A stretch of 64,000 nucleotides of DNA, taken from contig SRMA01025353.1 of NCBI GenBank assembly GCA_007224835.1, forward strand, positions 363,535 through 427,534, given 5' to 3'. This document shows positions 341 through 39,036 of this stretch, piece by piece. The notes under the pieces are model-generated. The model had not been told where the DNA came from. It searched no databases and worked only from the letters and a program-made list of their open reading frames with translations. Position 1 is the stretch's first letter, and the number at the start of each line of letters is the position of its first letter. This stretch comes from Danionella cerebrum (taxonomy: Eukaryota). The translations under genes and the position numbers were made by a program.

Positions 341-636
341 AAAAATATGTACAAACATGTTAATTAATTCAAGTAAATCCTTGTAACAATAAAAAAAAAA
401 CATGACTTTTGGGAGACATTTTTACAATAATTGCTTTGGTCTCTATAGTTTTATGGTACGTAGAAATGAAAAGCATTATTTTCAAAGTGTATCCAGAATT
501 AAAATTATACCCATAGAATAGAGACATACAGAATAATTAATTCATTTGGATCAAACTAATACACATGACTTTTTATTCATTACTTATTTATGTGGCTATC
601 CCAAAAATAGACAGTGATGTCATCAGAATAACTTAC

Positions 637-805
637 CAGACGCCACATAGTTCTCTGCCAAATCTCGGTCTTTCTCTATAAAGAGAGCCGTGGCCAAAAA
701 GAAAGCCCCGCCCCCTACAGCCACAAAAGTGCACAGCAGCAGTGACAACTGAAGTGAACGAAACTCCCACATGTAAGAGTCTGACTCCTTTATCGAGTCT
801 GAAAC
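637..805 (-). CDS. spns1: spns1 coding exon 11 (VSDSIKESDSYMWEFRSLQLSLLLCTFVAVGGGAFFLATALFIEKDRDLAENYVAS); the terminal exon(s) were not located
   Basis: Matches human ISDRLRRNWPPSFLSEFRALQFSLMLCAFVGALGGAAFLGTAIFIEADRRRAQ. It ends at a strong GTAAGT donor at 636-631, in phase 1, so the CDS continues beyond the window start. Confidence 0.7.
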
Positions 806-894
806 CTTAACGGGTAAAAGAAAAGGATCCAAGCATTATTGCAAGTTCTGACGGCTTCAAAAAGCTTTTGAGTCCTTTAGTGAGATGAACATAC

Positions 895-993
895 CACTCC
901 AATGAGGTACGGGCTAATAGCGTCTCCAAGCAAGTGTGAGAGCACAATCTGAAAGGCTTCTGCAGTGGAACGCCGTGTAGGGATCACAACATA
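895..993 (-). CDS. spns1: spns1 coding exon 10 ([33 protein letters not shown])
   Basis: Near-identical to human [33 protein letters not shown]. Acceptor ttttcag, donor GTATGT. Confidence 0.8.
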
Positions 994-1662
994 CTGAAAA
1001 AGATAAACGCAACATCAAGTACTCAAGCATCACTCCAATTTTACATGATCTTTCACTTTTATTACAAGTCTATCTAAAATATTTGGTCATTCATTTATTT
1101 TCCAAACTGCTAATTCCCTTTTGGAGTCACAGGGGCCTGCCGGTGCCTATCTCCAGCGCGTATTTTGGCGAAAAGCAACGTGTCGCCAGTCCTTCGCAGG
1201 GCAACCTTCACTCACTCGTTCACAGCTAAGAGGAATTTAGATTATTCAGTTAACCTAACCGCATGTTTTTTGGGATTGTGGGGGAAACTGGAGTATCCGG
1301 AGGAAACCCACGCAAGCACGGGGAGAACATGCAAACTCCTTCCAGGAAGGTCACAGGAGAGCCTTCCAACTGGTAGGCCACAGTGCTACCCACTGCACCA
1401 CCTTCTTGCCCCTTTAAACCTTTATTTTCAGCAACCATGAGAAATTAATGTTCATGTTCTAAATATGAACCTAATTTTAAATACTAAGCCACTTAATGCT
1501 ATTGCTCAATGATCACTTTAAATGCTATTTTTTGTGTAACAACCAATAGAGTAGTTAAACTAGCTGCAAACACTATATAGTACACGAACTTGACTGTCCA
1601 GTTAAATCCTTAAATTCTTCATTCCTTTGACTTGTGTGAATAAAAAGTGAGGAAAAACTCAC

Positions 1663-1728
1663 CAGGAGAATGTCGGCAACAATGGCCCAATTCATAGATA
1701 GGAATGTCTCACCCAAAAAGATAAAGAC
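1663..1728 (-). CDS. spns1: spns1 coding exon 9 (VFIFLGETFLSMNWAIVADILL)
   Basis: Matches human IFIFIGETLLSMNWAIVADILL. Acceptor tttcatcag, donor GTGAGT. Confidence 0.8.
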
Positions 1729-1839
1729 CTGATGAAAGCACAAAAAGTCTGTTATCATTACAGTCAGCAATAACATTGGGAGAGAGAGAAGGAGGGGTGA
1801 GTTAATAACACAGTCAATGGGGTCAGATGAGTGTCTTAC

Positions 1840-2029
1840 ATATGTGGCCACAGTGCTGGCCTGAGCAAACATGATGGAAAGATACAGAAACGGAGCAGCG
1901 AGGAGAAGTCCTGCAGCACAGACTAGAGGGTCTGCTCGGGGTGTTCTGATCCTCAGCATCTTGCTGGCTTGCACTCCACTCGCTACACCCAAGATCCCTG
2001 TTACAACTGTGATGGTACCAAAAATCAGA
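1840..2029 (-). CDS. spns1: spns1 coding exon 8 (SLIFGTITVVTGILGVASGVQASKMLRIRTPRADPLVCAAGLLLAAPFLYLSIMFAQASTVATY)
   Basis: Matches human SLIFGLITCLTGVLGVGLGVEISRRLRHSNPRADPLVCATGLLGSAPFLFLSLACARGSIVATY. Donor GTAAGA. Confidence 0.8.
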
Positions 2030-2124
2030 CTGGAGGGAGATATCAGGAACGTCATTAGTAGATTGTTTGAAACGGAGTGAAAATTATAATCGAAATGGGA
2101 ACATAAGAGATAATGGTTTGGTAC

Positions 2125-2277
2125 CTGTCTGAGTCATCACATGGAGCTTTAAAGCAAGGCAGCTTCACTCCAGTGAAGACACCTGCTCTAAATAAAAAGG
2201 CAGGAGCCCACAGAGCCAATGATCCTGTCACAAATGCCACAGCGGTGAAACCGAATGTGGACAGAATAAAGCTTGGA
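2125..2277 (-). CDS. spns1: spns1 coding exon 7 (NPSFILSTFGFTAVAFVTGSLALWAPAFLFRAGVFTGVKLPCFKAPCDDSD)
   Basis: Matches human NPSFVLSSLGFTAVAFVTGSLALWAPAFLLRSRVVLGE. Acceptor tttttcag, donor GTACCA. Confidence 0.75.
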
Positions 2278-2384
2278 CTGAAAAAGAACAGATGCATTTA
2301 AGAAAATGAAAAAGAAAACGCATTTAGGTCTGGAAATAGAGATATTATTTTAAACGTGTAATTATTTTTCTCTTATGATCGAAC

Positions 2385-2870
2385 CGTTCAAGTCACATAC
2401 AGTTGTGCTCATGAGTTTACATACGCTGGCAAATTTTCTGATTTCTTGGCCATTTTTTCAAAACTAATAAACATGGTTAGGTGAAGTAATTTCTTGTCAA
2501 ATAACTGTGTTTACTCTTTTTAAATCAAAATGACAACAGAAACTTTGAACCTGATCAAAAGTTTACACTAAAAAAGTAATATTTTGTAACATAAATGACA
2601 GCCTGAGGTCTCTTGAGGTAGTTGTGGATGAAGGTCTTTATCTTCTCTGTTGGTAAAGCAGCACATTTTTCTTGGCAAAAAGCCTCCAACTCTTGTAAAT
2701 TGAGTTCTCTCCAGACTGGTTCAATGAAATTGTCTGGTGAAACCAATCACAAGTAGACTTGGCCTTGTGTTTTGGATCGTTATCATGTTGGAATGTCCAG
2801 CAACGTCCCATGTGCAGCTTCCGGGCTAATGATGCACATTTTCCTTTGAGAACAAGCTGCATTCATCTTC
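2385..2870 (-). mobile_element. Tc1-like DNA transposon remnant (terminal repeat cagttgtgctcatgagtttacatac plus a transposase fragment with FQHDNDPKH) inside a spns1 intron
   Basis: Track ORF 2638-2862 (-) contains [16 protein letters not shown], the Tc1 DDE-region signature. The terminal sequence TTTACATAC is Tc1-like. Confidence 0.7.
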
Positions 2871-3158
2871 CCAAAAATTCTGATAAAGTTTCATGTGCCT
2901 TTGGAGCTCATACATCCCCACATCACTGCCTTTTGTTTCACTTTGCGTTCCATTCATGTTGACTCCTCTCCAAATTTTGTGTTTCTGGTTATGGCCCAAC
3001 CACTAACCATACATAGAAAAAAATGCTTTTGTGCCGTATTTTCTGGAAAAAAAAAAAAATGCCCTAGAAATCAGGCAATTTGTCAGGGTGTGTAAATGTA
3101 TGAGCGGAAATGTTTAATATTACACCAGGAAAAAAAATATTACTTAAAATTGACTGAC

Positions 3159-3301
3159 TTTTTACAAAGTGCTTTCATATCCGCAAACCAGCTGGTTCTG
3201 TGCAGCGTGTGCTCGGGGTGAGCTTCAATTGCGCCTCGCTTTGGTTCATGGACCACAAAGAACAAGAGGAACACAGCTACAATTCCTAAACCTGGTGTCA
3301 C
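3159..3301 (-). CDS. spns1: spns1 coding exon 6 (VTPGLGIVAVFLLFFVVHEPKRGAIEAHPEHTLHRTSWFADMKALCK)
   Basis: Matches human VTPGLGVVAVLLLFLVVREPPRGAVERH...TSWWADLRALAR. Acceptor ttcttcag, donor GTCAGT, ends in phase 2. Confidence 0.75.
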
Positions 3302-3379
3302 CTGAAGAAGAGACAAAGCGTTGAGAAAAAGGAACAACTTTCATCTGGTGATTAAAACATCTACATGCAAAGACATACC

Positions 3380-3446
3380 CGAAGTGCCCAGTGCCAGTCC
3401 TCGGCCATATTATCCACCTTTGAGCCCACGATATACCCAAGACCAC
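3380..3446 (-). CDS. spns1: spns1 coding exon 5 (SGLGYIVGSKVDNMAEDWHWALR)
   Basis: Matches human [23 protein letters not shown]. Acceptor cctcag, donor GTATGT. Confidence 0.8.
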
Positions 3447-3556
3447 TGAGGATACAACAGCAATAGATATAAGGAGAACTGGGATGAACACAACATGGTA
3501 ACAAAATAATAACATGAAAACCCAGAGCATTGTCACTAATGGAAGATGTGTATTAC

Positions 3557-3708
3557 CTGCCCACTGGGATTGCAAAGTAAAAGATGGAGAGCATGTTCGT
3601 TCTCTTTTCCTTGATGAAGAGGTCAGCAATGACCGTGGGAGCGATGGTCGAATAACTGGCTTCCCCAACACCCACCAGCCCTCTCGTCAACAACAGCGCC
3701 CAGAAATG
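3557..3708 (-). CDS. spns1: spns1 coding exon 4 ([50 protein letters not shown])
   Basis: Near-identical to human [32 protein letters not shown]...[13 protein letters not shown]. Acceptor tcatag, donor GTAATA. Confidence 0.8.
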
Positions 3709-3811
3709 CTATGAAAGGTTTAATCTTGTTTAGTTTAATGAACCTACACAGACTAAAGCAAAGACTTTTTATGTTGGGGATATCTCATAGATGTTTTTGG
3801 AATGGGCTTAC

Positions 3812-3948
3812 GTCTTTCCCGATGAAGGAGCTGGCCAGTGTTACTATGGACCAGAAGAAAATCCCCACGCACATAATCAGCTTCCTATTGTACCGGTCAC
3901 CAAGGTATCCAAAGAGTGGAGCCAAGAACATGTAGCTGCAGATGAAGA
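3812..3948 (-). CDS. spns1: spns1 coding exon 3 ([46 protein letters not shown])
   Basis: Matches human [44 protein letters not shown]. Acceptor cctcttcag, donor GTAAGC. Confidence 0.8.
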
Positions 3949-4019
3949 CTGAAGAGGAAACAAGGACTAATTAAACTGCTACTAATAATCGCATGTACTA
4001 CACTCTGCAGAATGCGCAC

Positions 4020-4085
4020 CTGTCTGAAGTAGCCCTGACTTTCCATCGCTTATGCTGAAGAAATGCTCAATGTCTGGAAGTACAC
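4020..4085 (-). CDS. spns1: spns1 coding exon 2 (VLPDIEHFFSISDGKSGLLQT)
   Basis: Matches human VLPDIEQFFNIGDSSSGLIQT. Acceptor tttcag, donor GTGCGC, phase continuous with exon 1. Confidence 0.75.
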
Positions 4086-4352
4086 CTGAAAGAAAGAACA
4101 TATCTCAAAATACTGATATTAAAGTGAAACAATAGGGTAAGAGCCTGTAATCTATACCTTTAGTAAAATGCTCAGCATAAATGAGTATACACAAGTTTGT
4201 CAGAAAACGTTAAGTAAAAAATGTTTCTCAAGCCCATGTTGGGGTGTTTTCAGTTTTGCTTCAAGCAATTTAAGTGAAACTGTAGAATGCTGAAGAGCCA
4301 TCGACGCTATACTTGGCATTACAGCGTTGTGTTGTGTGGTTGATCTTGTCAC

Positions 4353-4554
4353 CTGCCACTGTGAATCTGTCCATATAATTCAATAAGTTGATATAGCAGA
4401 GCACAATCACAGTCAATTTCGCTCTTCTGTCGGACACTCCACTGGCAGGCTCCTCCTCTTCAGGCTGAGTAGATCCCACCCCATTTTTAATAGGCCCCTC
4501 CTCCTCATTATCATCCGAGAAGAAGGGTGTGGTATCTGCCTCTGTTTGAGACAT
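4353..4554 (-). CDS. spns1: spinster homolog 1 (MFS lysophospholipid transporter), coding exon 1. ATG at 4554-4552; the exon itself begins at an acceptor at 4562, so a non-coding 5' exon lies upstream
   Basis: Translation MSQTEADTTPFFSDDNEEEGPIKNGVGSTQPEEEEPASGVSDRRAKLTVIVLCYINLLNYMDRFTVAG matches the spinster N-terminus (human SPNS1 ...ALIVAVLCYINLLNYMDRFTVAG). Donor GTGACA follows. Confidence 0.8.
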
Positions 4555-5749
4555 CGCTCCTGCTGAAAAAAACAAAGAGGACAAAAATTATATCAGTGCA
4601 CAAAACTAGTTCAAGAACAATTGACCTCATCGCGCAAACGATGGTGGTTCTAATAAAATAAAAATCATATTTCTTAAGTTTTTTTTTAAGATTGTAACAG
4701 ATCTCTGGGTTGTATATAGCCTTAATTCAGATTTCAAACAGTGGAGAAGAATGCACTGCGTAAACAGAAGAAATGTGAGATATATCTGTTAAGATTCATA
4801 TTTTTTTAATAATGCACCCAAGCAAACCAATTGCTCCGGTGACAATGGTTTGATTGTGATTTTTGCTTCAGTGCAGAAAAATCTCGGATAAATTAAGCAA
4901 ATCTTACATAATATCATAATATCTGCACAAAAACTTAGTAATAGTAAGAAATACACCTTTCCAATTAGTGAATACATATGTTAAGATGTTGTATATTCTG
5001 TTGTGATACTGTTTAATTAAGTAAACTCTAAAATAATTCAAATTTATTAAAAAAAGATTGCATTTAGATTTTCTAAAACGTTCCCGATCACCAACTCTAT
5101 TCTGAAACGGGATTTGGCAAAATAGAGGACAATATCCTCTTTTCAGATGCAAAGTTTCAAAATATGAGGAAGATGGTGAAGGAAGCTTGTGATCCAAATC
5201 AATCTAACCACAGTGTCATGTGAATTTTAGGAAATAGCGAGGAATAACTTGTTGCAGAAATCTGAATCCATTTACACATGCATACTAATTAAATGTAGCT
5301 ATAAGTTTAAGGGCATGTTTTTTGCAGAGGCAGAACCCAAAGACGTTGAAAAGGCACTCCAGAAGATCCTTTATCAACTTTTAGTTATCTGAAATGTCAG
5401 CTAAACCCAGTTTGAGATGAAGCAGCTTTTGTTGCTGACTGAGGACATCTGATGCTGGGGTTGACAAACACTAGATCTATGTTCACTGGACAGTTAAGCA
5501 ACATGTCCAGTCAGCTGAGCGTCCAGGAAACTAAAGGCGCACGGAAAATCTGTATTTTGCTTTTTGGGCGTAGTTGATGTTAACTTCCATTACATTTGTA
5601 TACATTTTTATATTATAAAACACAACTAAAAGTTTGTTTTAACATATGCGTTGTTAGTAAATTTGAAAAACAAAAAAGGCATAGACAACCAAGGCTTTAG
5701 AACAAGAAACACGAATTGTCTCCTATCTGTTGTGTCCTATGCTTTGTTT

Positions 5750-6010
5750 ACTGATCGGTGACACCCTTCGAACGTTACAGTAAGTTACGTTACCTGCAAA
5801 GTCAGTCTTTGGCGTCCTCGGCGTCTCCTTCGAGCTTACTCCTGGTGGTTGAGAGGTTCCAATCCGATAACTTTACCTGACCTCCTGAGTGAACATTTTA
5901 ACGGCGGTGCATGTACTCTATTGGGACAGAGCAGCGGTGCAGTGGAGTTTTGTTGATTTACAAGATCAGCACGACGCCATCTTGGAATTACGCAGTATTT
6001 CCGGTATAGT
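5750..6010 (-). promoter_or_regulatory. spns1: Putative spns1 non-coding first exon and core promoter. CpG-containing, with candidate donors CAG|GTAAAG (~5877) and CAG|GTAACG (~5797)
   Basis: The coding exon 1 acceptor at 4562 implies an upstream 5' exon. This is the only CpG-rich, non-repetitive segment between spns1 and the nfatc2ip 3' end. It holds an ETS-like CCGGAAAT motif. Confidence 0.3.
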
Positions 6011-6594
6011 CATGTGAGGGCAACCCCCCCCCCCAAGACAGAAATGAAAACACGACGTACGCATCTCGTGTTTTGATAACGTTTTTTTACTTTCACAAGA
6101 GCATATTATTAAAAATGGCCACCACGTGAATTAATAAAAAAACCCAAAACTTAATTATACAATATTGAAAAAGTATCTTTAAGAAAAAAAACAACCACCA
6201 CACAAAACCGCTTTACCCTTAAATTAATTTTTGTCCCCGTTCCTTCATTTTTAACTCTGTTACTTTTGTAAATATATTAATAATTAAACTATACGTTTAA
6301 TATAAATCTATAGATACAATTAAATGTACTAAATAAGTGCATTTATTCATTAATAAACACATCTAATTATTGTATTTGATTATTAATTTTTGCTCACCTT
6401 ATGAATCCATAAATGTTAAATTGCGTAGAATTGCTATTGAACTATTCTGTTCTGTTTCAGACTGTAATAGGTCATAATGAAGCTTTAAATTTTAACCTTA
6501 AATGTGTAAACAAATCATCTAAAAAAATTCCAGGAGAAAAAGCCTCTAATAGCTTAATTAACATATACATGCAACACAATTATTGCACACAATG

Positions 6595-6625
6595 TCAATT
6601 TATTGAAATTTTATTAAGCAATGAA
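6595..6625 (-). terminator. nfatc2ip: nfatc2ip poly(A) signals (two AATAAA hexamers on the minus strand) about 120-150 nt after the stop
   Basis: The minus-strand reading contains cttAATAAAatttcAATAAAttgac downstream of the stop codon. Confidence 0.45.
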
Positions 6626-6742
6626 ACTATTCCGCTAAACTCTAAAACTAGTTTGGTACCTCTACAAACTTAATTTACATGTGTTCTGCTCAGAACAAAT
6701 AAAATTAACTTCTTTGCGACAACTGAAACATTTCAGTAGCAT

Positions 6743-6904
6743 TTAGGTCCAGACTTCTATGACATCACCATCCTCCATGTCCAGGTCAGCTGGGGTCTGA
6801 TCAAAGGAGACCCTTGTACCGTCAAAGTAGAACTTGGCCCTCCTTCTAGCCCTGGCAGGCCAACTAGAAACATACTGATCCAAGACGGTCCCAAGAGGAG
6901 CATT
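6743..6904 (-). CDS. nfatc2ip: nfatc2ip terminal coding exon (NAPLGTVLDQYVSSWPARARRRAKFYFDGTRVSFDQTPADLDMEDGDVIEVWT, stop TAA)
   Basis: KFYFDGTRVSFDQTPADLDMEDGDVIEVW matches the human NFATC2IP C-terminus SFFFDGTKLSGRELPADLGMESGDLIEVWG. Acceptor tattatag. Confidence 0.85.
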   Translation of the reverse strand, partial: NAPLGTVLDQYVSSWPARARRRAKFYFDGTRVSFDQTPADLDMEDGDVIEVWT

Positions 6905-6976
6905 CTATAATAAACAAATGAATATATGCACTGCTTGTATTTACAAGAATAAATGTAAAAGACAAAGCAAACAGAC

Positions 6977-7071
6977 ATTTTTAATTGAATACTCCAGCAG
7001 CGATGTTTTTTCTTTGCCTTGGAGCCGCACAGTAATGACATCACTCGTGCTACTCTCCTCACGTTTGTTCT
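6977..7071 (-). CDS. nfatc2ip: nfatc2ip coding exon 8 (ENKREESSTSDVITVRLQGKEKTSLLEYSIKN); start of Ubl domain 2
   Basis: VRLQGKEK is the conserved start of NIP45 ULD2 (human RLRVQGKEK). Acceptor aacag. The donor GTCTGT is weak, so the 3' boundary is uncertain by a few nt. Confidence 0.6.
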
Positions 7072-7173
7072 CTGTTATTACACAATCTGAACACAGAAGA
7101 TAAAAAGAACGACTCATGCAGATTTCTGAATATGTTAAACATAAACAATAAACACAAAGTGAATAATTATTAC

Positions 7174-7318
7174 CTATTATATCAGCTATGCCGAGACCCA
7201 GCTCTGCAATGGAGGAGTGAACAGGAAGGTCCATGTCTTTCTTTAATAGCAGAATGTGGCTGGATGAGACATTGAGTTTGAGGGCAAGTTGTTCTACAGC
7301 TTTACTTAAAGGAGCAGT
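7174..7318 (-). CDS. nfatc2ip: nfatc2ip coding exon 7 (TAPLSKAVEQLALKLNVSSSHILLLKKDMDLPVHSSIAELGLGIADII); remainder of Ubl domain 1
   Basis: Ubl-fold C-terminal half (LPVHSSIAELGLGIADII, compare human PADLGLESGDLIEV). Acceptor gattgcag, donor AG|GTAATA. Confidence 0.7.
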
Positions 7319-7402
7319 CTGCAATCATAAGATTTACACAAACTACAGTCCACTTCCCATTGAAAATGGTTTAAACGGAAATTGATGAAATGTTCCACTT
7401 AC

Positions 7403-7649
7403 AGTCAGCAGTGGGATTTTGTATAACTCTGTTCGGCATCGAAATTTTAGCGAGATTACTCGTCCTCTGTCCTCAGCATTTGAGGGACGTCTATTCTGTT
7501 TATTGTCAGATGAAATGATAATGATATCGTCGTCATCATCGTAGTCCTTTCCTGGAGAAGGAGAGCTTCTATATTCGATTTCAGGCTCTTGAGGTTCAGG
7601 AGAACAGTATACGAGAGAGCCAATCGCATCCAGTTTTCTGTTGATTTCT
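7403..7649 (-). CDS. nfatc2ip: nfatc2ip coding exon 6 (EINRKLDAIGSLVYCSPEPQEPEIEYRSSPSPGKDYDDDDDIIIISSDNKQNRRPSNAEDRGRVISLKFRCRTELYKIPLLT); start of ubiquitin-like domain 1
   Basis: RVISLKFRCRTEL matches the start of human NIP45 ULD1 (RLRFRCRADL). Acceptor tttaccag, donor GTAAGT. Confidence 0.7.
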
Positions 7650-8152
7650 CTGGTAAAGCAAACGTGTTCGTTATGCCGTACCTCTTATACTTTAATTATA
7701 TACATTCTTCTAATATCAAGCATCATTAGGTTCCATTTCTCTCACTTACTCCTAGAAACAGAGGCTGAAAATATACCCCCATGAATCAGCTATTAATCAT
7801 ACATTATTCCTGTAAAACTAGCATTTTTGTCCTTTAAATTACTTGCTGGGTCCAAGGATCACTAGAAACGTAGAGCTACACAGAACTTGTTCATTCACAA
7901 AAGATTTGGATCCCTCCTTTCCCTCAAGTAAATGTACAAAAGGGCTCAGAAGTAGAAGTTAAACTCAGTCCTGGTCTAGTACATCTCTGTTCTTCCATTA
8001 ATCCACATCCCAGAATCTCCAAACCTAACAGGAGGTCCTTAATTCGTGTGCACTGGTGTGTTTTGTTAACAATGAAGCTAAACAGTGCCAGTTTGAGGCA
8101 CTACAGGAACAGAGTTGCCTTCCCTTGCCTTAGAGACCGCATTAATACTCAC

Positions 8153-8236
8153 AGTAGTTTTTTGTTTGCCCGTCTGCTCCGTTTCATCTGAGGAGTACAT
8201 AGTGGAGGAGGTGGAGATGGGGAATGAAAGGTTTCT
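8153..8236 (-). CDS. nfatc2ip: nfatc2ip coding exon 5 (ETFHSPSPPPPLCTPQMKRSRRANKKL)
   Basis: Acceptor ctctttag, donor GTGAGT. The proline-rich plus basic stretch resembles human NFATC2IP PPPSPP...RRSRRLR. Confidence 0.55.
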
Positions 8237-8739
8237 CTAAAGAGCACAGGGATGGTTTAGGTTAAAGAAGATGTATTAAGTGAGGTCTGTTAATTAATAA
8301 ATAAACAAACCTAGAACCTCATACATCAAAGTAATAAATGTATATATCTGCTAAGCATTCATTTCTGTCTGTTTTGGCCTTTGGCAGCTATTATAGGTGA
8401 TGAAGTGAAGTAGAGTTCAATAAAACCCAGAATCGGGTTCGCAACCACAAAATAAGATTTCGACTATGAAAATGGTAATAATGTGCAGCACATTTTTATA
8501 TATGGACAAAAAAAGTTTTAGACCTAAAATAAAAGTGAAAAAGCATGTAAAATATTAAAAAGATTGGCTCTCGAACATAGGTCTCAAATATGTGATTCAA
8601 AAACCGTATCATCCAAAAGCTTTAATATTACCAGCTAAATAAATAACTCATAACAAAACCCAAATAAAAAAAGATTTACCTTCTTTCTGAATACCTCTGC
8701 CAAAATTACTTTTTTGACAATCCTCTTAAAATCACTTAC

Positions 8740-8836
8740 CGAGGCTCTGTCGGCTCTGTTTCCTCTTCTGAGCCACTCAGATCGATGCTAACTACTGGTT
8801 TATATTTACGGGGTGGGGAATGATCCTTTTCTTCAT
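8740..8836 (-). CDS. nfatc2ip: nfatc2ip coding exon 4 (DEEKDHSPPRKYKPVVSIDLSGSEEETEPTEP); acidic, serine-rich
   Basis: Acceptor attctag, donor GTAAGT. Frame is continuous. The acidic SIDLSGSEEE stretch is typical of the NIP45 N-terminal region. Confidence 0.55.
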
Positions 8837-9041
8837 CTAGAATTCGGTAGACATCAGGGAAAAAATTATTTTATTTGGTTATTTTAAGTATTTAGGGATT
8901 AGAGTTTGTCTACATTTAGGACATCCCACATCAAGTAGTCAACATAAATAGTTTGACTTTTCTCCATAAACAAGATGTACGTATAGAATGCAGTAAAAAA
9001 AAAATACATTTCACACAGATTTACACAAGAGGTAACTTTAC

Positions 9042-9096
9042 CTTTCAAACTGGTGTGCCTGAAAGTTGCTGGATTCAGATTGAGTGAGCTGTTTAC
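9042..9096 (-). CDS. nfatc2ip: nfatc2ip coding exon 3 (VNSSLNLNPATFRHTSLK)
   Basis: Acceptor tgtatgcag, donor GTAAAG. It supplies the phase-1 nucleotide that the next exon requires. Confidence 0.5.
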
Positions 9097-9189
9097 CTGC
9101 ATACAATTTTAATTATTGTCTGCTGTATTTCCACTTTATACACCAATCTTATGTTGTTGTTTTTGTAAAGTTGAGCAATATATTCGCAC

Positions 9190-9297
9190 CTTGTTGGAAT
9201 ACACAGGTACAGTAGTGATGGACGAGGCGTTGATGAGACGTCGACGCTTGGGAGGTTTTGATACTGGAACAGTAACATCACTGACGGTGACAGACGG
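9190..9297 (-). CDS. nfatc2ip: nfatc2ip coding exon 2 (PSVTVSDVTVPVSKPPKRRRLINASSITTVPVYSNK) with a basic NLS-like KRRR
   Basis: Open frame between acceptor acttcag and donor GTGCGA. Phase is consistent with the flanking exons. Confidence 0.55.
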
Positions 9298-9993
9298 CTG
9301 AAGTTAAACAAAAAGAATGCATCTGAGTTCAAGTACATAGACTTTTTAAAACACAAGTTGCCAAGGAAACCATTAAAATGACCTTATTAATCTATGAAAA
9401 TTAATCTACGAGACACTGCACAAACATTTGGAGTTAGGTTTTTGCCTTGAAGCCAAACCATATACTCTTGCACACGGAAGAACTGCAGCCAAACGAATCT
9501 GGAACTTTAGAATTGGCAATGTTGGGGAAGTTAGTTTAGTTACAGTAGATAAATACACAATCTGCTTATTTCAAGGCCAATTTAATTTAATTATTCTGTA
9601 TGCGCAATTTTTTCTATGCCAAAGATCAACTTTGAAAGAAATTTGGTGTTTGAGCTGAACGAAATAGAACACATTTATAATTTTCTTCTTTTACATAGCA
9701 AAAAAAATTAATTTAATCCGTAGAGCTCCATGTAGAATATACTTAATGGGAAATCAGAATGCCTCTTTTTGTGCACAAGTTGCCGATACCTAGGCTAAAC
9801 TAAACTTACGTTTACGTAGATGTTAAGTACAGCACCGTTTAGAAACGAACGTTTATAATAATTTAAACAAAACAGCTGAAAGGCGTTTTAACAATCTTTA
9901 ATTATAAAAAGAGATTAGCATGCTATCGCTAACGTCACAAAATTCTGTGCGTTTACTCCTACTTTCGCTATCCTGTTAAGAACGAAATCTCAC

Positions 9994-10005
9994 CGTTTCA
10001 TCCAT
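9994..10005 (-). CDS. nfatc2ip: nfatc2ip first coding exon, 4 codons (MDET), followed by donor GTGAGA
   Basis: ATG at 10005-10003 in a CpG-containing promoter context. The phase-0 donor joins in frame to exon 2. It is the only arrangement I found that keeps the frame, but a 12-nt coding segment needs transcript confirmation. Confidence 0.45.
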
Positions 10006-10009
10006 ATTG

Positions 10010-10330: not shown

Positions 10331-10376
10331 AAATTATATTTCCACCCCTGGCTCCAATCTTTTTAATGTTGTAGAT

Positions 10377-10760: not shown

Positions 10761-11184
10761 ATTAACCGTCTTAAACATTCTGAGGAGGGTGATTTAAAAA
10801 AAAAAAAATTGGTTTAAGATTTATTTTACCTTAAAGTAATGCATTATTTAAGGGCATGTTAAACTATTCAATTAAAAATGTTAAGTGTTGCATCCAGTAA
10901 GACACTAAAAACATTAAATTATTGACCCACATCTGTTCTTATACAATAAATACCAGTAGTGATTATTATCATACAAACATCTCACTTGATGAATATATAA
11001 TAGACAAAATATTTATAAAAAATTTAGTTTTTCCTTCACATCTAACAGTAGAAAATGTATACTAAACAGTAGCATAAAAAATGAGTAATGTACAAGGTAA
11101 ACAAGAAGAGACAAAAGCACAACAACAGGAAGAAAACAGGCATTTTCAATAAGTCTTTTAGTAATATTTAGTCACTTCTTCATA

Positions 11185-11301
11185 TCACTTCTTTTTGTTC
11201 TCCTTGCAGGCTACAACATATCTCTGTGCTACGTTGAGGGGTGGAGAATATCCATCAGCATATGATGTGTCCTCAAACAGAACAGAATAGTCATCTTGAG
11301 G
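11185..11301 (-). CDS. sgf29: sgf29 terminal coding exon (PQDDYSVLFEDTSYADGYSPPLNVAQRYVVACKENKKK, stop TGA)
   Basis: Matches human PQDDYSVLFEDTSYADGYSPPLNVAQRYVVACKEPKKK. The nine reconstructed exons total 293 codons, matching human SGF29 length. Confidence 0.9.
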   Translation of the reverse strand, partial: PQDDYSVLFEDTSYADGYSPPLNVAQRYVVACKENKKK

Positions 11302-11447
11302 CTGGAAAAGAGGTCAGATTTCTCAATCAAATGACTCTTCAATCATACAAAGCTATTCAAACAATGTAACAACTCTGTAGCTTGATTGGCTTGAGAAAAA
11401 CTTGTCACAGAGTTGTTTTTTACTATTTTTGATCTTGTTCCCCTCAC

Positions 11448-11610
11448 CCGATGTGGTGGTGTGTGGATCAGAGCTCGGTAAAAGCAAGTCGTCTGTGGAT
11501 AGAGGGCTAGAACAAGCTGATCTTTACTGAACAGAGCCTCTGGGTCTGTCTCAGGGTTTGCCTTCCACTGTGGGAGAGGAATGATTCTTCTTCGACTTAA
11601 AGTGTGTCTC
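11448..11610 (-). CDS. sgf29: sgf29 coding exon 8 (RHTLSRRRIIPLPQWKANPETDPEALFSKDQLVLALYPQTTCFYRALIHTPPHR); Tudor domain
   Basis: Matches human RHTLSRRRVIPLPQWKANPETDPEALFQKEQLVLALYPQTTCFYRALIHAPPQR. Acceptor gtgttcag, donor GTGAGG. Confidence 0.9.
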
Positions 11611-12621
11611 CTGAACACAAGAGTAAATAAGAAACAATGAGCTTATCACAGTTTGTTTGTGAGTTATTAAATAGAACTAAAATGACACAATCATGGAAAT
11701 GTTTGAGGTGCTAGAACACATTTTTTTAAGATAATAACATGAATACTTGGTCTGCTTTAGACACATACCAATAAACTATCCAATCACTGAGTGATTACGT
11801 GAATACATTAATGAACTGCAAAAATATGCATGAAAGTATTTATTAATTTATACGCGAAACTCTCAGGATCACTTTTTGAAAGTGAATTTTATGAATGGTT
11901 GACAGTACTCATGTGACAGGACTCTCAAATGTTCAAAAAGTAAACGCTGCAATCTGACAGTTTAATTCTCACAGGGCTGTGGGTAAAGCCAGCAAATCGT
12001 TTAACGTCCGGTAAATACAACAGAGCTTGATAAGTTTACCACCAAGATAGTTTCATCAATGGTAGTCAACATTATACGTGAATTAAATGTGATGTTGCCC
12101 TTTATTTCAGGACCACAATATCTGGTCCATGTGTTAACAATGATCACTCGATCAACAAATCTGAGCAAATCTTTTCTACACTGCTATATGAAAAACTGCC
12201 AGTGAACAATGCGCGGAAGAAAATGTGCAGGAGATAAAAAAAACACTCCTTGGTATTTAATGAATTTATGGCTGATAAAAGTGAGGTGTGAAAGTGGATT
12301 GTTGGCTAAACATCTGAAGCCTTTCACACAGTTTTCTGGAAATATTTCAGGAAACTTGAAGCCGCATTCTGATTGGTTCACCTTGACGGGATTTCCAGGA
12401 GAAGCCCTTTTTTCTCGTTTGTTGCACATAGGTCAGTTGTTATGGTGTGAGATTAATACGCCCCCAAACATTACGCTATGCGAAATTGATTGTCACTCAA
12501 ATACCGTCGTGGGTGGGTCATGGCCAAAGAACCATTTCTGAGGCAAATTATAAAAGGGCAGGGCACTTTTATTTACCACAAAAATGACTTTAAAAGATTA
12601 CGAAATTCTAAGTGTACGTAC

Positions 12622-12657
12622 TCTTTTCCTTCTTCATCGATGTCATCTACTTCATAC
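12622..12657 (-). CDS. sgf29: sgf29 coding exon 7, a 36-nt micro-exon (KYEVDDIDEEGKE)
   Basis: Encodes exactly the human KYEVDDIDEEGKE segment. Acceptor tttattag, donor GTACGT. It is required to keep exons 6 and 8 in frame. Confidence 0.8.
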
Positions 12658-12739
12658 CTAATAAAGACAGCAAAACCGTGCAACGTTAGCATTCATATAA
12701 TCACACGCAAAGACTAAAAATCAGAGAACAGATGAATAC

Positions 12740-12886
12740 TTGTTAGTTGAATGGTTGTAGCTGACAACTTCTGCAAGAATCCACTGTTCATCCCCATCCA
12801 CGGCCTTCACACGTGCCGCGACCTTATCCCCCTGCTTAGCTACATAGTCACTGCTCGCTGGTATAGCACCACACAATGGAGGAGGA
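12740..12886 (-). CDS. sgf29: sgf29 coding exon 6 (SPPPLCGAIPASSDYVAKQGDKVAARVKAVDGDEQWILAEVVSYNHSTN); start of the tandem Tudor region
   Basis: Near-identical to human KPPPLCGAIPASGDYVARPGDKVAARVKAVDGDEQWILAEVVSYSHATN. Donor GTATTC. Confidence 0.85.
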
Positions 12887-12973
12887 CTGAAGATGTAGCA
12901 GAATATTAGTCTCAATATTCATTTCCCAAAGCAAACAGGCGATAAATCAAAATAATGTTTGTTGAAAGGCTAC

Positions 12974-13103
12974 CTCTCTCCAGGTTTGCCAATCCATAGT
13001 GGAAGGGTCATGGCTGACTGTTGTAAGAGGGTCATCAGGACACCTCTACGCATGGTCTTTCTGGGTGGGTCAGAGTCACTGTACACTCCAGCCATCCTAG
13101 CCG
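12974..13103 (-). CDS. sgf29: sgf29 coding exon 5 (AARMAGVYSDSDPPRKTMRRGVLMTLLQQSAMTLPLWIGKPGE)
   Basis: Matches human AAKIAGLYNDSEPPRKTMRRGVLMTLLQQSAMTLPLWIGKPGD. Acceptor tctacag, donor GTAGCC. Confidence 0.85.
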
Positions 13104-13169
13104 CTGTAGAGATCGAAAACCATCAAATCAGAATACAATCCGATTTACACAGTAGGAACCAAGACTTAC

Positions 13170-13234
13170 CAATCCGTCTCTCCTCCAAAAGGGACTTAAT
13201 TTCAGCAATCTTGTCAAGTGCCCTTCGAAGTATA
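13170..13234 (-). CDS. sgf29: sgf29 coding exon 4 (SILRRALDKIAEIKSLLEERRI)
   Basis: Matches human NILRKALDKIAEIKSLLEERRI. Acceptor ttcacag, donor GTAAGT. Confidence 0.85.
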
Positions 13235-13857
13235 CTGTGAAAGGGACGTAAATAAGAACGATCTTTATAAAAGATCAAAGCACTTAGACAGGCTAGCAAC
13301 GTAAAATGATTTCTAGTTTTATAAAACAAAATGCTGTAAACAAATACTGCTTTGGCTGCATGTTTGGGGTCCCTGATGGATAAGCATCTATACATTTCTC
13401 AGCATTGAGAAAACCATTAATCCTGAACAAATTTCCAACTCCATTTGCAGAAATGCAGCCACAAACATTCAAGGAACCTCCACCATGCTTCAGTGTTGGC
13501 TACAGACACTTATTATAGCATCGCTCCTTTCTGCTACAGCTAAATGTTTAAAATCGTGAGTCATCAGTGCAGTGTCAGGCCTGCCTTTAAATTTGCACCG
13601 TGCTGTATCTAAGTGAATTAAAGATAAATATGTGATGAATACATTTTTAAAATAATGTTTAACATGATGTGACTCTTCTGGGGGAGCAAAAGAACCACAA
13701 GATGGAGCCACATCATTGGATGCTTATATATTTTAACATTGTACACAAGTAGTAGGAAATGTATTTTCTGTCCTTTTGGCTCATCAAAAACAACAACAAC
13801 AAAAAAACAACAACGATACTCTACAAATTAAATAGATGGACATCTAAATCAAGTTAC

Positions 13858-13930
13858 CTGCATTCAGCTTCAGCATCAGCTTTAGCCGTTGTGTACAGAC
13901 CCCGCAATTTTGTTCGGTAATATGGAGAAG
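13858..13930 (-). CDS. sgf29: sgf29 coding exon 3 (TSPYYRTKLRGLYTTAKADAEAEC)
   Basis: Matches human ISPYYRTKLRGLYTTAKADAEAEC. Acceptor ctccttag, donor GTAACT. Confidence 0.85.
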
Positions 13931-14022
13931 CTAAGGAGTAAGAATATGGAAATCAAATGATGTCTTAATCTGAAAAGCTGTTTATTTGTAACTGTTCTCA
14001 CAATGTCAAACACATGTCTTAC

Positions 14023-14098
14023 TCTTATTTTCAGTCTGCATCCTCTCATGAGTTTTCTGGATGTTGAGGAGGTTGTGTTCACTTCTAGATCGCTCTTC
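14023..14098 (-). CDS. sgf29: sgf29 coding exon 2 (EERSRSEHNLLNIQKTHERMQTENK)
   Basis: Matches human EERSRSEHNLVNIQKTHERMQTENK. Acceptor aaacacag, donor GTAAGA. Confidence 0.85.
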
Positions 14099-14283
14099 CT
14101 GTGTTTGAACCATCAGGGTTTTAAAATACGAGGTGCAATGCACAGGAAAGCAAACTATGTTTGAATAATATCAAATGACATTTTATTAAACGGCTAGTGG
14201 TTATCCTAATCAATGCTTTTGGATTCTTTCAAAGCATGCGTTCTCAGATAACTGCTTTGAATATTTGTGCAAGTGCATCTCAC

Positions 14284-14358
14284 CTGAGTTTGCTTGATGA
14301 AGTGATGCAGCTCATTCAGGAGCTCCACGATTTTGGTGTCGGCTGACACCAAAGCCAT
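14284..14358 (-). CDS. sgf29: SAGA complex associated factor 29, coding exon 1 (MALVSADTKIVELLNELHHFIKQTQ)
   Basis: Matches human SGF29 MALVSADSRIAELLTELHQLIKQTQ. ATG at 14358-14356, donor GTGAGA. Confidence 0.85.
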
Positions 14359-17300
14359 TGTGCCTGCAGGAGGGATTGTGGATTAGTAGTTGTATAAATT
14401 CACTTTTCCAAGTTATAACTAATAAATGTAAGTCAACAGAATTAAAACAAAAAAGAAATCTTTGATAAAATAACGTTTTATTGATTAAACCATGTATTTA
14501 GTAATTAAACTGGACTATTTTCGTTTTATAAAGCAATAGTAAAATCAGCAATCCCTTAATAACAATTAATTTAGATAAATGTAGCTACGCGGCAGACCAC
14601 TTGAATGCATGATGCTAGCACGCACAGATTAGCAAGAAAACAGCAAATCTCACCTTTAAACAAACAGCTAGCCTATAACCTTCAAACTACCCTTGTGTTG
14701 ATACGTGAACTATAATTAAAAAATATTTATTAATAAAATGGTCGCTTTCCCAAAAAGAAAGTACGCCTTTGTTTACGCTTTTGGGTCGTTAGCTTTTTAG
14801 CTCCTTCTTCTTCTGGTGTTTTATTGGCAGTTTGGAGCCTAGCTCTTTGGAGCATTACTGCCACCATCTGGGTTGCAGTTTGAGTGCAAGATGGATAAAG
14901 GAAAAAAATGTAATCATGAATATGTACTGTATATTTTTTTTATACATCGATAATCCATATGGTGTAAAAATCGTATTTATATACACACATCTATCTTACA
15001 GTTTTTGATCTCTGATATCCATCCTAAAATAAATTTCTTGTACTTTTAAGGAATATTAATATATTTTTATAAGATCTAGTGTCCTTTAATAAAATCTTTT
15101 TTCTTAGTTCTATCAGAATTGTTCTTTCTACATCATATGCTATAATTATATGTTCTATATTCTACATTTGAGCTCATTAGCTAGGCCTTATATGGATCCT
15201 TTGAAAGGATCGTGGCGTATTTTCCAAACGTGTTTTTACCGTATTTTTAGTGGGTCATTTACTTTTACTACTAGCTTATAATGAATATAATGACGCACAT
15301 ATACTTCTTAAATGTAATTATTCTACTTAAATATTTGTCACGTTATGTAAAAAAAAAAGCAAATTGTTTAAAATGTGCAGTTTTAAATGGCCATCCTTAT
15401 CTCCATCGTTTGGGTAAATGACAGATTCCACATGTTTTTGAGGTTTCCAAAAATGTATTTCATAATTTACATAATTAACAATTTAGTTGTCAAATTATTA
15501 TTTAATGTATTTTATTTCTTAATGTTATTTAATTCAAATAAGTTTTTGTTGACTGGGAATATCTTTGGTCTAAAAATGCCTTTAGTGGATAATGTGACCG
15601 AAAACAAGAATCCAGACAAGATTGTGAATGATTACTGATAAGCGGTTGTTAATTTAGAAATCTGGATATGGAATAAAATGATGAAGAGAGGCTGAGAGAT
15701 TAGATGGATTTGCAGAATTGTGTTTTCATAGCATAAAATGGAGTTTCTTGGCACAACCCAAATCTGTGTAAATATTTACAGTACAGCACACTCTCACATG
15801 ATCAGAATGAAGCCAAGGCAAAGATAAACAACAGACAGATCTGTGTTAAACTTGGGGAGCTGGTGGTTGTATTATGACTATAGAAACTCTGTTCGCCAAA
15901 ACACGCTGAGAGCTACTTCAACCTCGCTGTAAAAACTAGCACAATGTGTTCTACTCCCTGTGATTCTTTATGACAGCAATAAATGTTTATTTTTCCTTAT
16001 TTCTCCTGAAGCTTTCACTCATGTAGCACATTTTCATGATAGTAGGAAAAATATGAACGTATTGCACTGAAACGGTTTCCCCCTGAATAACACTTTCCAA
16101 AAATATCCAGTAGAGTCAGTCCTCATCAATCTCTGCCAAATTCCACTAGAAGGGATATAGATATTTTTAATGGCATGTGCTTATATTAACGCATATATTC
16201 TAAAATGGTTCATTATTTAAAACGTTTACCATTTTGTCTTTTGGCATGCTTTCTGAAATAATATGTGCCTTGCCCTTTGAAATGTGGCATTTGACCAGAC
16301 CATTCTGACCTGCGTGAAAAAAACCTTGAACATCAAATACAATTCTGCTTAATCTTTCAGCTCTAGTCTATTTGCCTTTTCATTTATTGTGAAATACTGT
16401 ATGCAAGAAACAAAGCAGCCACACACAGACTATGTGCTACTGTGCCAATTGCAGCAGATGGCATTCAATGCCCCTTTTGCTGATGAAGACAGAGCCCTAT
16501 GCAGAAGAATGAGTCATGTTTGATGAGTTTATCTAGAAAAAAATAAAATTAAATAGTCATTGTGTGAAGACATGGTGTGGAGAAAACAGCAAGACTAATT
16601 AAAACACATCGTTTGGCTTTCAAATGACCATAACTGGATCTGTGTCCTGATCAAAGCATAAAAAATGCAGTTTATTAAGCTTTGCATGCTCCCCAAAGAC
16701 TTTATTTTAACTAAAGGATCAGGTTAGTGGGTCACAGTCCAGAGAGAGGGACGTGAGAAGTTTGAACACAGAGTCAGGTGTAAAATTACTGTGATAAACA
16801 TTAACTGGAATAATCTAATCTCTGTCAGATAAAAGCAAACACTCAGACTAAACTGTGTGTTAAAGGGATAGTTCCACTTAATAATCAAAATGTTCAGCTT
16901 TAAGTTCCTCCATTTCTTATTTTTGTTTGTCTTAAAAACACGTAGAACTGCAATTTATATCACAAAATTCAAAACTGCTTATATCCCATATTTCCAATAT
17001 GTTTCTCAGAGTTTTTGTCGAGTTTTTGGAGTTGGTTTAAATAAAAGAATAAAAAGTGTGTTTTGTTTAAATCTGCAAATATGACTACTTTTAATTAAAT
17101 AAACTATGATAATAATGATAATTGGCAGCACGGTGGTGCAGTGTGTAGCCTGCCTTTGACCTGAAGTGCACCAGCAGAACCCTGTGATCCTAAAAAGGAT
17201 GAAGTGAGTAAAGAAAATGAATGAATCAGGCTATACTGTAAAATAACAATTAAATAATGTATTGTGTTACATTTACTTTTACCTATATTTTTAGTCATTT

Positions 17301-17359
17301 TTCAGAGTAAATTTTGTAGACGCACTGTGCGATTTTAGTCAGATCTAAAAACAATTTTT

Positions 17360-17955
17360 AAATAATTACTTAGCAAACAAAATGCTGAGAATGAATAAAA
17401 GAGAAATCGAAGATACCAAAAGTAATATTTGGTGTAGCCACCCTTTATGGCAGCAATTATTTTCGGTGCCCTTGAACACTTTATGAAGGAACTCTGCTGG
17501 TGGTTGTTCCAAACATCTCGGGGGAACTAAGCACAGATCTTCTCTCTTCATGTAATCCCAGACACTTGTTGATGTTGAGATCAGAGCTCTGTGCGAGGCG
17601 TGCCACCACTTCCACTACACGTTGTCCTCTTTTTACTCTGAAAAAAGTTCTTAATCACTTTTCCTTCATGTTTGGGCTCATTGTCCTGCTGCAGAATACG
17701 CATGTGGCAAATCATACGCCTCCCTGATTGTATTGCATGATGGATAAGTATCTGCCTGTATTTCTCAGGCATCATTAATCGTGACAAAATCTCCAAGTAA
17801 TTTGCAGAAATGCTGCTCCAAATGTTCAAGGAACCATTCTCCAGCCCCATGAACAAACTACATTCTGGGTGTACCTGGAACCCACTTTTTTCTGCAAGAT
17901 CTTGGGGTGTGCAGTAATTTCTATTAGTTCTTATTGTTGCTTGATCATACACCTA
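17360..17955 (-). mobile_element. Tc1-like transposase remnant (ILQQDNEPKHEGKVIKNFF)
   Basis: Track ORF 17581-17952 (-) carries the Tc1 QQDN(D/E)PKH motif. Similar remnants occur at ~13380-13500, ~30890-31250 and ~33720-33800. Confidence 0.65.
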
Positions 17956-18331
17956 GCTTGAATCCGGCCTGGTGAGGTCTATAATTAACATTCTCTGGCA
18001 CCCTTTGATGACTTTTCACTGTGAAAATAACAGAATCACATGAGCAGTTTTGTCTATAATACATGGAAAAATAAAAATAGACCTACATTGATAGACAAAA
18101 GAAACATGTCATGTGCTCTAAAGGACAGTCTGCTTGACAAACAAACATGAACTCCGATGATGCAACTGGTTTCTGGTCATGTCGACCCATCATCCTCCTC
18201 CTCAGCTCGAGGAGAAGAAGGCGGAGCGACGCCTTTAAAAGAACACGACTGGCTGCATGTAAACAACACAGAAGAACTCGGGACGATTGTTTAGTAGTTT
18301 CTCAAATTTATTATCATCCTTCGCTGTGAAA

Positions 18332-18431
18332 ATGAGCAACCACGTCGACGTGAAAAACATTGAACCCACCACTTTTGAGGACCGCTACTACGATGAATAT
18401 GAATATTATAACTTGACAGACCGCTACACCG
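18332..18431 (+). CDS. nupr1: nuclear protein 1 (p8 stress protein), coding exon 1 (MSNHVDVKNIEPTTFEDRYYDEYEYYNLTDRYT)
   Basis: First in-frame ATG. Donor GTAAGC in phase 1. The product joins exon 2 to give a ~75-aa protein, as expected for NUPR1. Confidence 0.7.
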
Positions 18432-18525
18432 GTAAGCTTTTTCCTTGTACTTTTATTTTAAATACTTTTTAACGCGTTGTTGTGTCTTATTTTAAGTTCC
18501 CTTACGCATTTCCTGTGTTTACCAG

Positions 18526-18653
18526 AGTGCACTAGTCGTAAAGGCAGGTCGAAGAAGGAGGCGAGCGCGAACACCAACAGACCCAACCCCGCGGGCCATG
18601 AGCGCAAAATAGTGGAAAAACTACAGAACGCAGAGAAGAAATCCAAAGAGTGA
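18526..18653 (+). CDS. nupr1: nupr1 coding exon 2 (ECTSRKGRSKKEASANTNRPNPAGHERKIVEKLQNAEKKSKE, stop TGA)
   Basis: Matches human NUPR1 GGRKGRTKREAAANTNRPSPGGHERKLVTKLQNSERKKRGARR. Acceptor gtttaccag. Confidence 0.8.
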
Positions 18654-19018
18654 CTCAAAAAGGTGAGTTAAAACACCCACCGACCGATTTGCAAAATAAA
18701 ATAAAACGTTGCTAACTGTATGTCCGTGTTTTTCCAATAGATTCAAACGGACGGCTTTAACTGGCAAGCGACCACTGGTGTCTGTGCGGGTCATGAGCGC
18801 GAGGCTTGAGAAAGTCCGCCCCGAGATCAAAGCTCGATGAGCGGCCTGAGACTGGGAAAAGCTCCAGCTCCAAGGAATCAGGAGTTTTGTCATGCGCAGA
18901 ACTTGTTCAGAGGAACCGATATGTCTGGGATGGGAAACGCCCATTTTATAGAGTGTAGTTTGCACCGTGTTTGTTTAAACGTTTTAAATGGTGAATCATT
19001 TTAAAAGCTACTTTTATA

Positions 19019-38058: not shown

Positions 38059-38421
<363 letters not shown>

Positions 38422-38956: not shown

Positions 38957-39036
38957 TGCACTGGGGACATTAGAATTCGAGCTGAGGTATGAGAGAGAGA
39001 CTAGTTCACTCCACTGTACCATCATCAGAGCCAAGG
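38957..39036 (+). CDS. doc2a: doc2a coding exon 2 (TALGTLEFELRYERETSSLHCTIIRAK); start of C2A
   Basis: Matches DOC2A ATALGTLEFDLLYDQASCTLHCSILRAK. Acceptor ttgcatag, donor GTAACA. Confidence 0.85.

Follow-up and report, generated by a model that had tools for sequence, protein, structure and literature searches.

Fish counterparts of human chromosome 16 are displayed by synteny browsers. On the human side, the gene order of region 16p11.2 has been laid out for a 678 kb deletion (GRCh37 28.50-29.18 Mb), whose ordered list reads APOBR, IL27, NUPR1, SGF29, SULT1A2, SULT1A1, NPIPB8, EIF3C and EIF3CL and, after further genes, ATXN2L, TUFM, SH2B1, ATP2A1, RABEP2, CD19, NFATC2IP, SPNS1 and LAT; DOC2A lies in the BP4-BP5 interval at 29.65-30.20 Mb (PMC11354020). 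Among teleosts, the position and the orientation of LAT, SH2B1, ATXN2L, SPNS1, NFATC2IP and SGF29 are conserved (PMC10839663), and the zebrafish homologues of 16p11.2 genes, doc2a included, have been catalogued and are nearly all clustered on chromosome 3 or 12 (PMC3484866). The present analysis concerns a stretch of 64,000 nucleotides from Danionella cerebrum (assembly GCA_007224835.1, contig SRMA01025353.1, positions 363,535 to 427,534 of the forward strand), referred to here as the window, in which spns1, nfatc2ip, sgf29 and nupr1 are clustered and doc2a follows. The LAT neighbourhood published for Nile tilapia and other teleosts is the same block as that of the window; nupr1 and doc2a are unmentioned in that work and Danionella is not included (PMC10839663, Fig. 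1A). The arrangement in D. cerebrum is real and ordinary, and represents an already known conserved gene order.

Exon-intron structures of the five genes were obtained with a reference-guided splice solver applied to the window (Table 1). In a preliminary description of this DNA, four genes had been placed at 600-18700, three of them on the minus strand and nupr1 on the plus strand, with doc2a some 20 kb further on. The exon models bear out these positions and strands, and 19,447 bp separate the nupr1 stop codon from the doc2a ATG. The term head-to-tail, used there for all four, is correct for spns1, nfatc2ip and sgf29 but not for sgf29 and nupr1, which are divergent and thus head-to-head. The clustered genes are separated by gaps of 2,188 bp (spns1 ATG to nfatc2ip stop), 1,179 bp (nfatc2ip ATG to sgf29 stop) and 3,973 bp (sgf29 ATG to nupr1 ATG), which therefore leave no room for a further gene among the four. 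An assembly artefact, either a chimeric join or collapsed sequence, could also create such a tight juxtaposition, and the public sequence of D. cerebrum is a draft from hybrid assembly whose scaffold N50 amounts to 341 kb (PMC6710283). At least six other fishes, however, show the same order and orientation in assemblies independent of this one, and in the models all 36 introns keep GT-AG borders and every reading frame is intact, which leaves this explanation with a negligible probability.

Table 1. Coordinates of the modelled genes and of the divergent interval in the 64,000-nucleotide window (exons in transcript order)
Feature	Span	Strand	Coding exons	Remarks
spns1 (spinster homologue 1, MFS transporter)	637..4554	-	4554-4353, 4085-4020, 3948-3812, 3708-3557, 3445-3379, 3301-3159, 2277-2125, 2029-1840, 1728-1663, 993-895, 805-637	11 coding exons, 481 aa, incomplete; splice solution, GT-AG
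nfatc2ip (NFATC2-interacting protein)	6743..10005	-	10005-9994 (MDET), 9297-9190, 9096-9042, 8836-8740, 8236-8153, 7649-7403, 7318-7174, 7086-6977, 6904-6746	9 coding exons, 339 aa, stop 6745-6743; splice solution
sgf29 (SAGA-associated factor 29)	11185..14358	-	14358-14284, 14098-14023, 13930-13858, 13234-13170, 13103-12974, 12886-12740, 12657-12622, 11610-11448, 11301-11188	9 coding exons, 293 aa, stop 11187-11185; splice solution
sgf29/nupr1 divergent interval	14359..18331	.		3,973 bp, ATG to ATG
nupr1 (nuclear protein 1 / p8)		+	18332-18431, 18526-18653	two coding exons, 75 aa
doc2a (double C2-like domain-containing protein alpha)	CDS 38101..56908; candidate 5' exon ~29972	+	38101-38413, 38956-39035, 39203-39277, 41877-41986, 43699-43825, 45548-45607, 52922-53106, 54126-54207, 55738-55834, 56772-56908	10 coding exons, 421 aa; splice solution

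The identity and the order of the genes are shown by the sequence. The names and orthology proposed earlier agree with domain scores, PDB comparisons and database matches. The check for paralogues that had been suggested (spns2/3 or another ubiquitin-like protein) was carried out, and none of the proteins compared preferred a paralogue. Spns1 has the MFS fold (Pfam MFS_1, 132.6 bits, residues 53-408) and reaches 473.7 bits with human SPNS1 against about 353 bits with SPNS2 in the PDB, a comparison of these two only, SPNS3 having no PDB entry. The Sgf29 model is residue for residue the D. cerebrum protein TRY95638.1 (DNTS_017842), and its identity amounts to 98% with Onychostoma and, over the full length, 91% with mammals. 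Its Tudor region is recognised both by the PDB structure of human SGF29 (182 bits) and by Pfam SGF29_Tudor (139.3 bits). An N-terminal coiled coil is predicted from the alignment, and the 91% identity to the human protein suggests that Sgf29 would bind H3K4me2/3 within SAGA.

In Nfatc2ip, residues 175-250 resemble the SLD1 domain of human NFATC2IP (2l76, 50.5 bits) and residues 255-334 resemble SLD2 (2jxx, 60 bits), whereas the SUMO2 domain scores about 30 bits with each; Pfam Rad60-SLD scores 45.3 bits. The protein ends with '...GDVIEVWT' directly before TAA and lacks a C-terminal di-glycine, and is therefore not a conjugatable modifier. The database was queried with Nfatc2ip and Nupr1 combined. 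Rad60-SLD is present in 89 of the 90 matches, 71 carry the NFATC2IP name, and the top match comes from D. cerebrum. Identity to zebrafish Nfatc2ip is 54-72% in tblastn alignments and 71% in the database table. The same combined query gave no NUPR1 family match among its 90 matches; the only one without Rad60-SLD, a nupr1+doc2 fusion of Aldrovandia (P0210), was found through the Nupr1 part. Nupr1 itself, whose human counterpart has no PDB entry, is recognised by Pfam Phospho_p8 (PF10195) with 94 bits, the cutoff being 25, and its place beside sgf29 also argues for a NUPR1 identity.

Doc2a carries two C2 domains (Pfam C2, 184 bits). C2-domain proteins of teleosts or bowfin make up its best 120 matches. 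The name is alpha or doc2a for most of these and beta or gamma for none, and the identity is 95% with zebrafish and 73% with bowfin. An N-terminal stretch is conserved in the Doc2a of zebrafish, sucker, bowfin and halosaur, and we take it to be the Munc13-interacting region.

Sequence comparison thus supports the reading of all five genes as the named orthologues and not as paralogues. The opposite reading, in which they are paralogues (spns2/3, another ubiquitin-like protein, doc2b/g, nupr2) or belong to a second paralogon of the teleost duplication, so that the 16p11.2 labels are wrong, can point to the two doc2a-like copies of several teleosts (94% and 75% identical in Xyrauchen, 81% and 73% in Esox, and two in Astyanax). 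Wherever a species has two copies, however, the window protein corresponds to the high-identity member. Zebrafish doc2a and nfatc2ip are both located on one chromosome record of 67,698,726 bp, and the Spns1 scores, the preference of each Nfatc2ip SLD for human NFATC2IP over SUMO and the names of the best Doc2 matches, with zebrafish doc2a as the closest, all argue in the same direction. Paralogy is accordingly very unlikely. That five neighbours all derive from one human interval of about 1.5 Mb would be far beyond chance.

Comparison with other fishes, with each locus oriented so that sgf29 lies on the plus strand, shows how widely the arrangement is shared. In zebrafish (GCA_049306965.1, CM111181.1, L005), a minus-strand C2-domain gene is followed by sgf29(+), nfatc2ip(+) and spns1(+), which are the same genes in the same order and on the same relative strands as in the window, with an opposite-strand C2-domain gene upstream. 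The Onychostoma locus reads nupr1(-), sgf29(+) and a model in which nfatc2ip and spns1 are fused(+), that of Takifugu sh2b1(+), two minus-strand genes, sgf29(+) and nfatc2ip(+), and that of bowfin nupr1(-), sgf29(+) and an ADP-ribosylglycohydrolase gene(+). A second bowfin species has nupr1(+) 9 kb upstream of doc2a(+) with nothing called between them. In reedfish, nfatc2ip is flanked by one Ig-domain gene and one Sel1-repeat gene. Two nupr1 copies with identical tblastn results are seen in the bowfin Amia calva (L004, 3358-4009 and 5522-6173), 2.2 kb apart and upstream of sgf29; only one of them is called as a gene, and the pair results either from a recent tandem duplication or from faulty assembly.

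Some public gene models have been merged across neighbouring genes and are therefore incidental witnesses of adjacency. Sgf29 is fused to nfatc2ip (Sgf29+Rad60-SLD) in Arapaima and Paramormyrops, an ADP_ribosyl_GH domain to nfatc2ip (Rad60-SLD) in gar, and exon 1 of Nupr1 to Doc2a in Aldrovandia. In addition, the locus tags of doc2a, sgf29 and nfatc2ip are consecutive in two Albula species, Megalops and Oryzias javanicus. The series sgf29-nfatc2ip-spns1 is the general teleost condition; in holosteans an extra gene separates sgf29 from nfatc2ip. A direct sgf29-nfatc2ip adjacency before the teleosts is unsupported, as the reedfish gene has other neighbours. From the sequences compared, the nupr1/sgf29 and nupr1-doc2a adjacencies are older than the teleost genome duplication and go back to the ancestor that bowfin shares with teleosts. 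The old linkage group postulated in the preliminary description thus finds confirmation in the nupr1/sgf29 pair of bowfin and cyprinids, the sgf29-nfatc2ip pair of teleosts and the nupr1-doc2a pair of bowfin.

These comparisons suggest a simple explanation. The five genes are very probably ordinary single-copy vertebrate genes whose neighbourhood was inherited and did not arise anew. The bowfin-teleost ancestor already had both nupr1 pairs, the divergent one with sgf29 and the one with doc2a, and the sgf29-nfatc2ip-spns1 tandem is the common teleost state. Each gene would keep its usual separate role, namely as a lysosomal MFS transporter (spns1), a protein with SUMO-like domains (nfatc2ip), a Tudor reader of SAGA (sgf29), a stress-induced nuclear protein (nupr1) and a neuronal Ca2+ sensor (doc2a). 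The locus is very probably best explained by an old linkage group that a miniaturised genome has retained neutrally, although the neutrality is something that we infer; there is no sign of a special mechanism.

One observation weighs against this explanation. The 75 amino acid Nupr1 and the full Nfatc2ip and Doc2a models of the window have no exact public match. For Nfatc2ip and Doc2a this is explained by deviations of the deposited models at some exons; the exact Nupr1 sequence has no entry in a collection of 15 billion proteins, and the gene may be unannotated in the public D. cerebrum assembly. The spacing of the sgf29 and nupr1 start codons is nearly constant and stays within 3.8-4.0 kb in the three fishes measured: Danionella has 3,973 bp, Onychostoma about 3,820 bp (L002 9772-13593) and bowfin about 3,830 bp (L004 6173-10001).

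Such a constant distance would fit the main alternative, in which selection holds the block together through shared regulation, either by a bidirectional sgf29/nupr1 promoter region or by interdigitated enhancers across nupr1-doc2a. Both bowfin and cyprinids keep the divergent nupr1/sgf29 pair, whose members are also neighbours in human. The interval between them holds a non-coding block of 160 bp (16689-16849) that is 76% conserved with Onychostoma, and the nupr1-doc2a adjacency is retained in bowfin and several teleosts. Against shared regulation, the same interval has accepted a Tc1-like transposase relic (17581-17952), a separation of SGF29 and NFATC2IP by about a dozen genes is tolerated in tetrapods, and reedfish nfatc2ip has unrelated neighbours. 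Moreover, the 10 kb upstream of sgf29 show no detectable nupr1 in Takifugu flavidus (L003 1-7400), where sh2b1 and a minus-strand LAT-like gene (a transmembrane segment followed by CLHC and a YVNV motif) are found instead. On balance, selection for shared regulation appears unlikely, and neutral retention is preferred. The Takifugu region is also marked by long acidic and Met/Val-rich low-complexity tracts.

The locus had further been called highly compacted. The genome assembly of Danionella comprises 735 Mb, about half the size of that of zebrafish, and its median intron measures 462 bp compared to 1,119 bp in zebrafish (PMC6710283). Over all 27 introns of the clustered four, the median is 103 bp, even with the first nfatc2ip intron of 696 bp included; these genes are tighter than this genome median, whereas doc2a, with a median intron of 1,530 bp, is not. 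From the sgf29 ATG to the spns1 ATG the distance is 9.8 kb, in contrast to 26.4 kb in zebrafish (about 2.7-fold), and nfatc2ip spans 3.3 kb compared to 11.4 kb; Takifugu is comparably tight. Exon DNA of Danio aesculapii is 82-92% identical to the window, and the introns do not align. The density of the window is explained by the small Danionella genome with its short introns and spacers (PMC6710283), and the rest of the difference between the fish and human spans by the human intervening genes, which fish do not have in this interval. In other teleosts SH2B1, ATXN2L and LAT adjoin the block (PMC10839663), and in Takifugu sh2b1 and the LAT-like open reading frame (ORF) lie upstream of sgf29. 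The claim of compaction consequently holds for the genome-wide shrinkage of introns and intergenic regions in Danionella, but not insofar as a different gene order, and not shrinkage, separates fish from human.

The human region resembles the window in its NUPR1/SGF29 and NFATC2IP/SPNS1 adjacencies and in the order NUPR1, SGF29, NFATC2IP, SPNS1. NUPR1 is presumably on the minus strand in human and the other three genes on the plus strand, which would be the same relative strands as in the window. More than ten genes separate SGF29 from NFATC2IP in human, whereas none does in Danionella, and the human span of hundreds of kb contrasts with 18 kb. Both adjacent pairs had been named in the preliminary description, together with a human span of roughly 400 kb and the lack of SULT1A or immune genes within the fish cluster. 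The ordered human list agrees with the pairs and with the span (PMC11354020), and SULT1A2/1, NPIPB, EIF3C/CL, ATXN2L, TUFM, SH2B1, ATP2A1, RABEP2 and CD19 are indeed absent from the Danionella interval. The placement of DOC2A as distal proved incorrect, because BP4-BP5 is the proximal interval and lies on the SPNS1 side. DOC2A is found beyond SPNS1 and LAT in human, whereas doc2a is found beyond nupr1 in Danionella and bowfin, so that the five genes are not collinear between the two arrangements.

Data from other tetrapods shed some light on this difference. The mouse homologue of BP4-BP5 is bounded by Sult1a1, and this Sult1a1-Spn interval (PMC4752317) can be set alongside the surroundings of SGF29 in a bat and a turtle. 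In the bat Phyllostomus discolor (L006 10001-48880), an SGF29 gene of 30.5 kb precedes SLX1, which lies on the opposite strand no more than 5 kb away, and in the turtle Chelonia mydas one model (P0042) fuses SGF29 with a sulfotransferase. Mouse, bat and turtle together suggest that the separation of SGF29 from BP4-BP5 in human is derived, and SGF29 and the DOC2A block may have been closer to each other before primate rearrangement. In ray-finned fishes the distance between doc2a and nupr1 is 9-19 kb, and nfatc2ip and spns1, whose human counterparts belong to the distal interval (BP2-BP3), are no more than about 30 kb away from doc2a. Long-range chromatin contacts between both human copy number variant intervals have been described (PMC5508252). 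It is conceivable, albeit improbable, that the fish doc2a linkage is the ancestral bony-vertebrate state and that the human contacts are a remnant of one regulatory neighbourhood split by primate rearrangements.

Several gene models of the window can be compared with deposited ones. The D. cerebrum models of Nfatc2ip and Doc2a lie on the same public contig of 523,711 bp as TRY95638.1, the one with DNTS_017822, 017842 and 017848. The deposited Nfatc2ip model (P0121, 272 amino acids) is 100% identical in the shared exons, lacks four 5' exons and runs into an intron. Exon 1 of nfatc2ip, only four codons long, was located by homology to zebrafish exon 1 ('...TMAET|GTGAGT'). A start within the first large exon was considered and discarded in favour of this short exon, several nearby ATG codons being out of frame. 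The deposited Doc2a model (P0215, 393 amino acids) is identical to the window model wherever the two overlap; it omits exon 41877-41986 and begins at an upstream ATG at 29972. With this public first exon, doc2a probably extends upstream to about 30 kb, and the unassigned gap between nupr1 and doc2a is therefore reduced to about 11 kb. A zebrafish origin of the window (GRCz11 chromosome 3), with which gene content and order, GC content, Tc1-like debris and fish-type zinc-finger genes would agree, is refuted by the exact Sgf29 match and the identical exons of D. cerebrum, the low identity of zebrafish Nfatc2ip, the Danio introns that do not align and the 2.7-fold longer zebrafish cluster; the alignment to GRCz11 proposed in the preliminary description would have been poor and confusing.

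The spns1 model is incomplete at its 3' end. It ends with '...ENYVAS' followed by a strong donor (G|GTAAGT), the zebrafish protein has 506 amino acids compared to the 481 modelled here (about 25 fewer), and no tail-like ORF was found in window positions 1-640; the last coding exon therefore lies off the left edge of the window. A read-through end, '...ASGKLF*', was ruled out by the strong donor and by the zebrafish length. No LAT-like ORF is present in the 64-kb window; going by the published synteny of teleosts, lat may lie further left of spns1.

The remainder of the window has a fish-like composition, with a GC content of about 38% and short coding fragments split by introns and Tc1-like transposase debris. 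Rfam and tRNA scans gave zero matches. Only transposon debris and one zinc-finger gene were found among the ORFs at 14.4-18.3, 18.7-30.2 and 56.9-64 kb, the nupr1-doc2a gap having been covered without a full six-frame Pfam scan. No conserved gene is expected in this gap, since bowfin and the locus tags of Albula leave no space for one. Downstream of doc2a, the minus strand carries a C2H2 zinc-finger gene (60280-61215, an ORF of 312 amino acids with C-terminal fingers; Pfam zf-C2H2, zf-H2C2_2) with a separate N-terminal exon at 62237-62455 (-), which reads 'MTKLEVINTFVTGRLMAVLEEIVEMVGGTVLQYEKELD...' and has no Pfam match. In bowfin, by contrast, doc2a is followed by a WD40 gene.

Besides the Tc1-like relic in the sgf29/nupr1 interval, two others lie at 2513-2999 and 35338-35741. 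Dispersed repeat copies were detected at 13394-13483 and 17669-17835 (both related to 61651-61830) and at 24925-25424 (related to 42222-42954). Relics and repeats are located in intron 6 of spns1, one sgf29 intron, the sgf29-nupr1 spacer and one doc2a intron, and one repeat family also occurs in Danio aesculapii (L001 22683-23870). Intron 6 of doc2a contains a 28 bp minisatellite (50711-50978, 9.6 copies, 91% matches) and a strongly purine-skewed low-complexity block (46049-46882, GC skew +0.36), and a similar CT-rich low-complexity stretch (29600-30800) surrounds the candidate doc2a 5' exon.

The genes of the window are already annotated in the public D. cerebrum assembly and the teleost SGF29-NFATC2IP-SPNS1-LAT neighbourhood has been published, so that the discovery value of the locus is small. 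The gain consists of cleaner models than those deposited, with four additional nfatc2ip exons, one additional doc2a exon and the Nupr1 protein. Human 16p11.2 distances are a poor yardstick for this gene neighbourhood, because the human region has itself been rearranged and its distances are unrepresentative.

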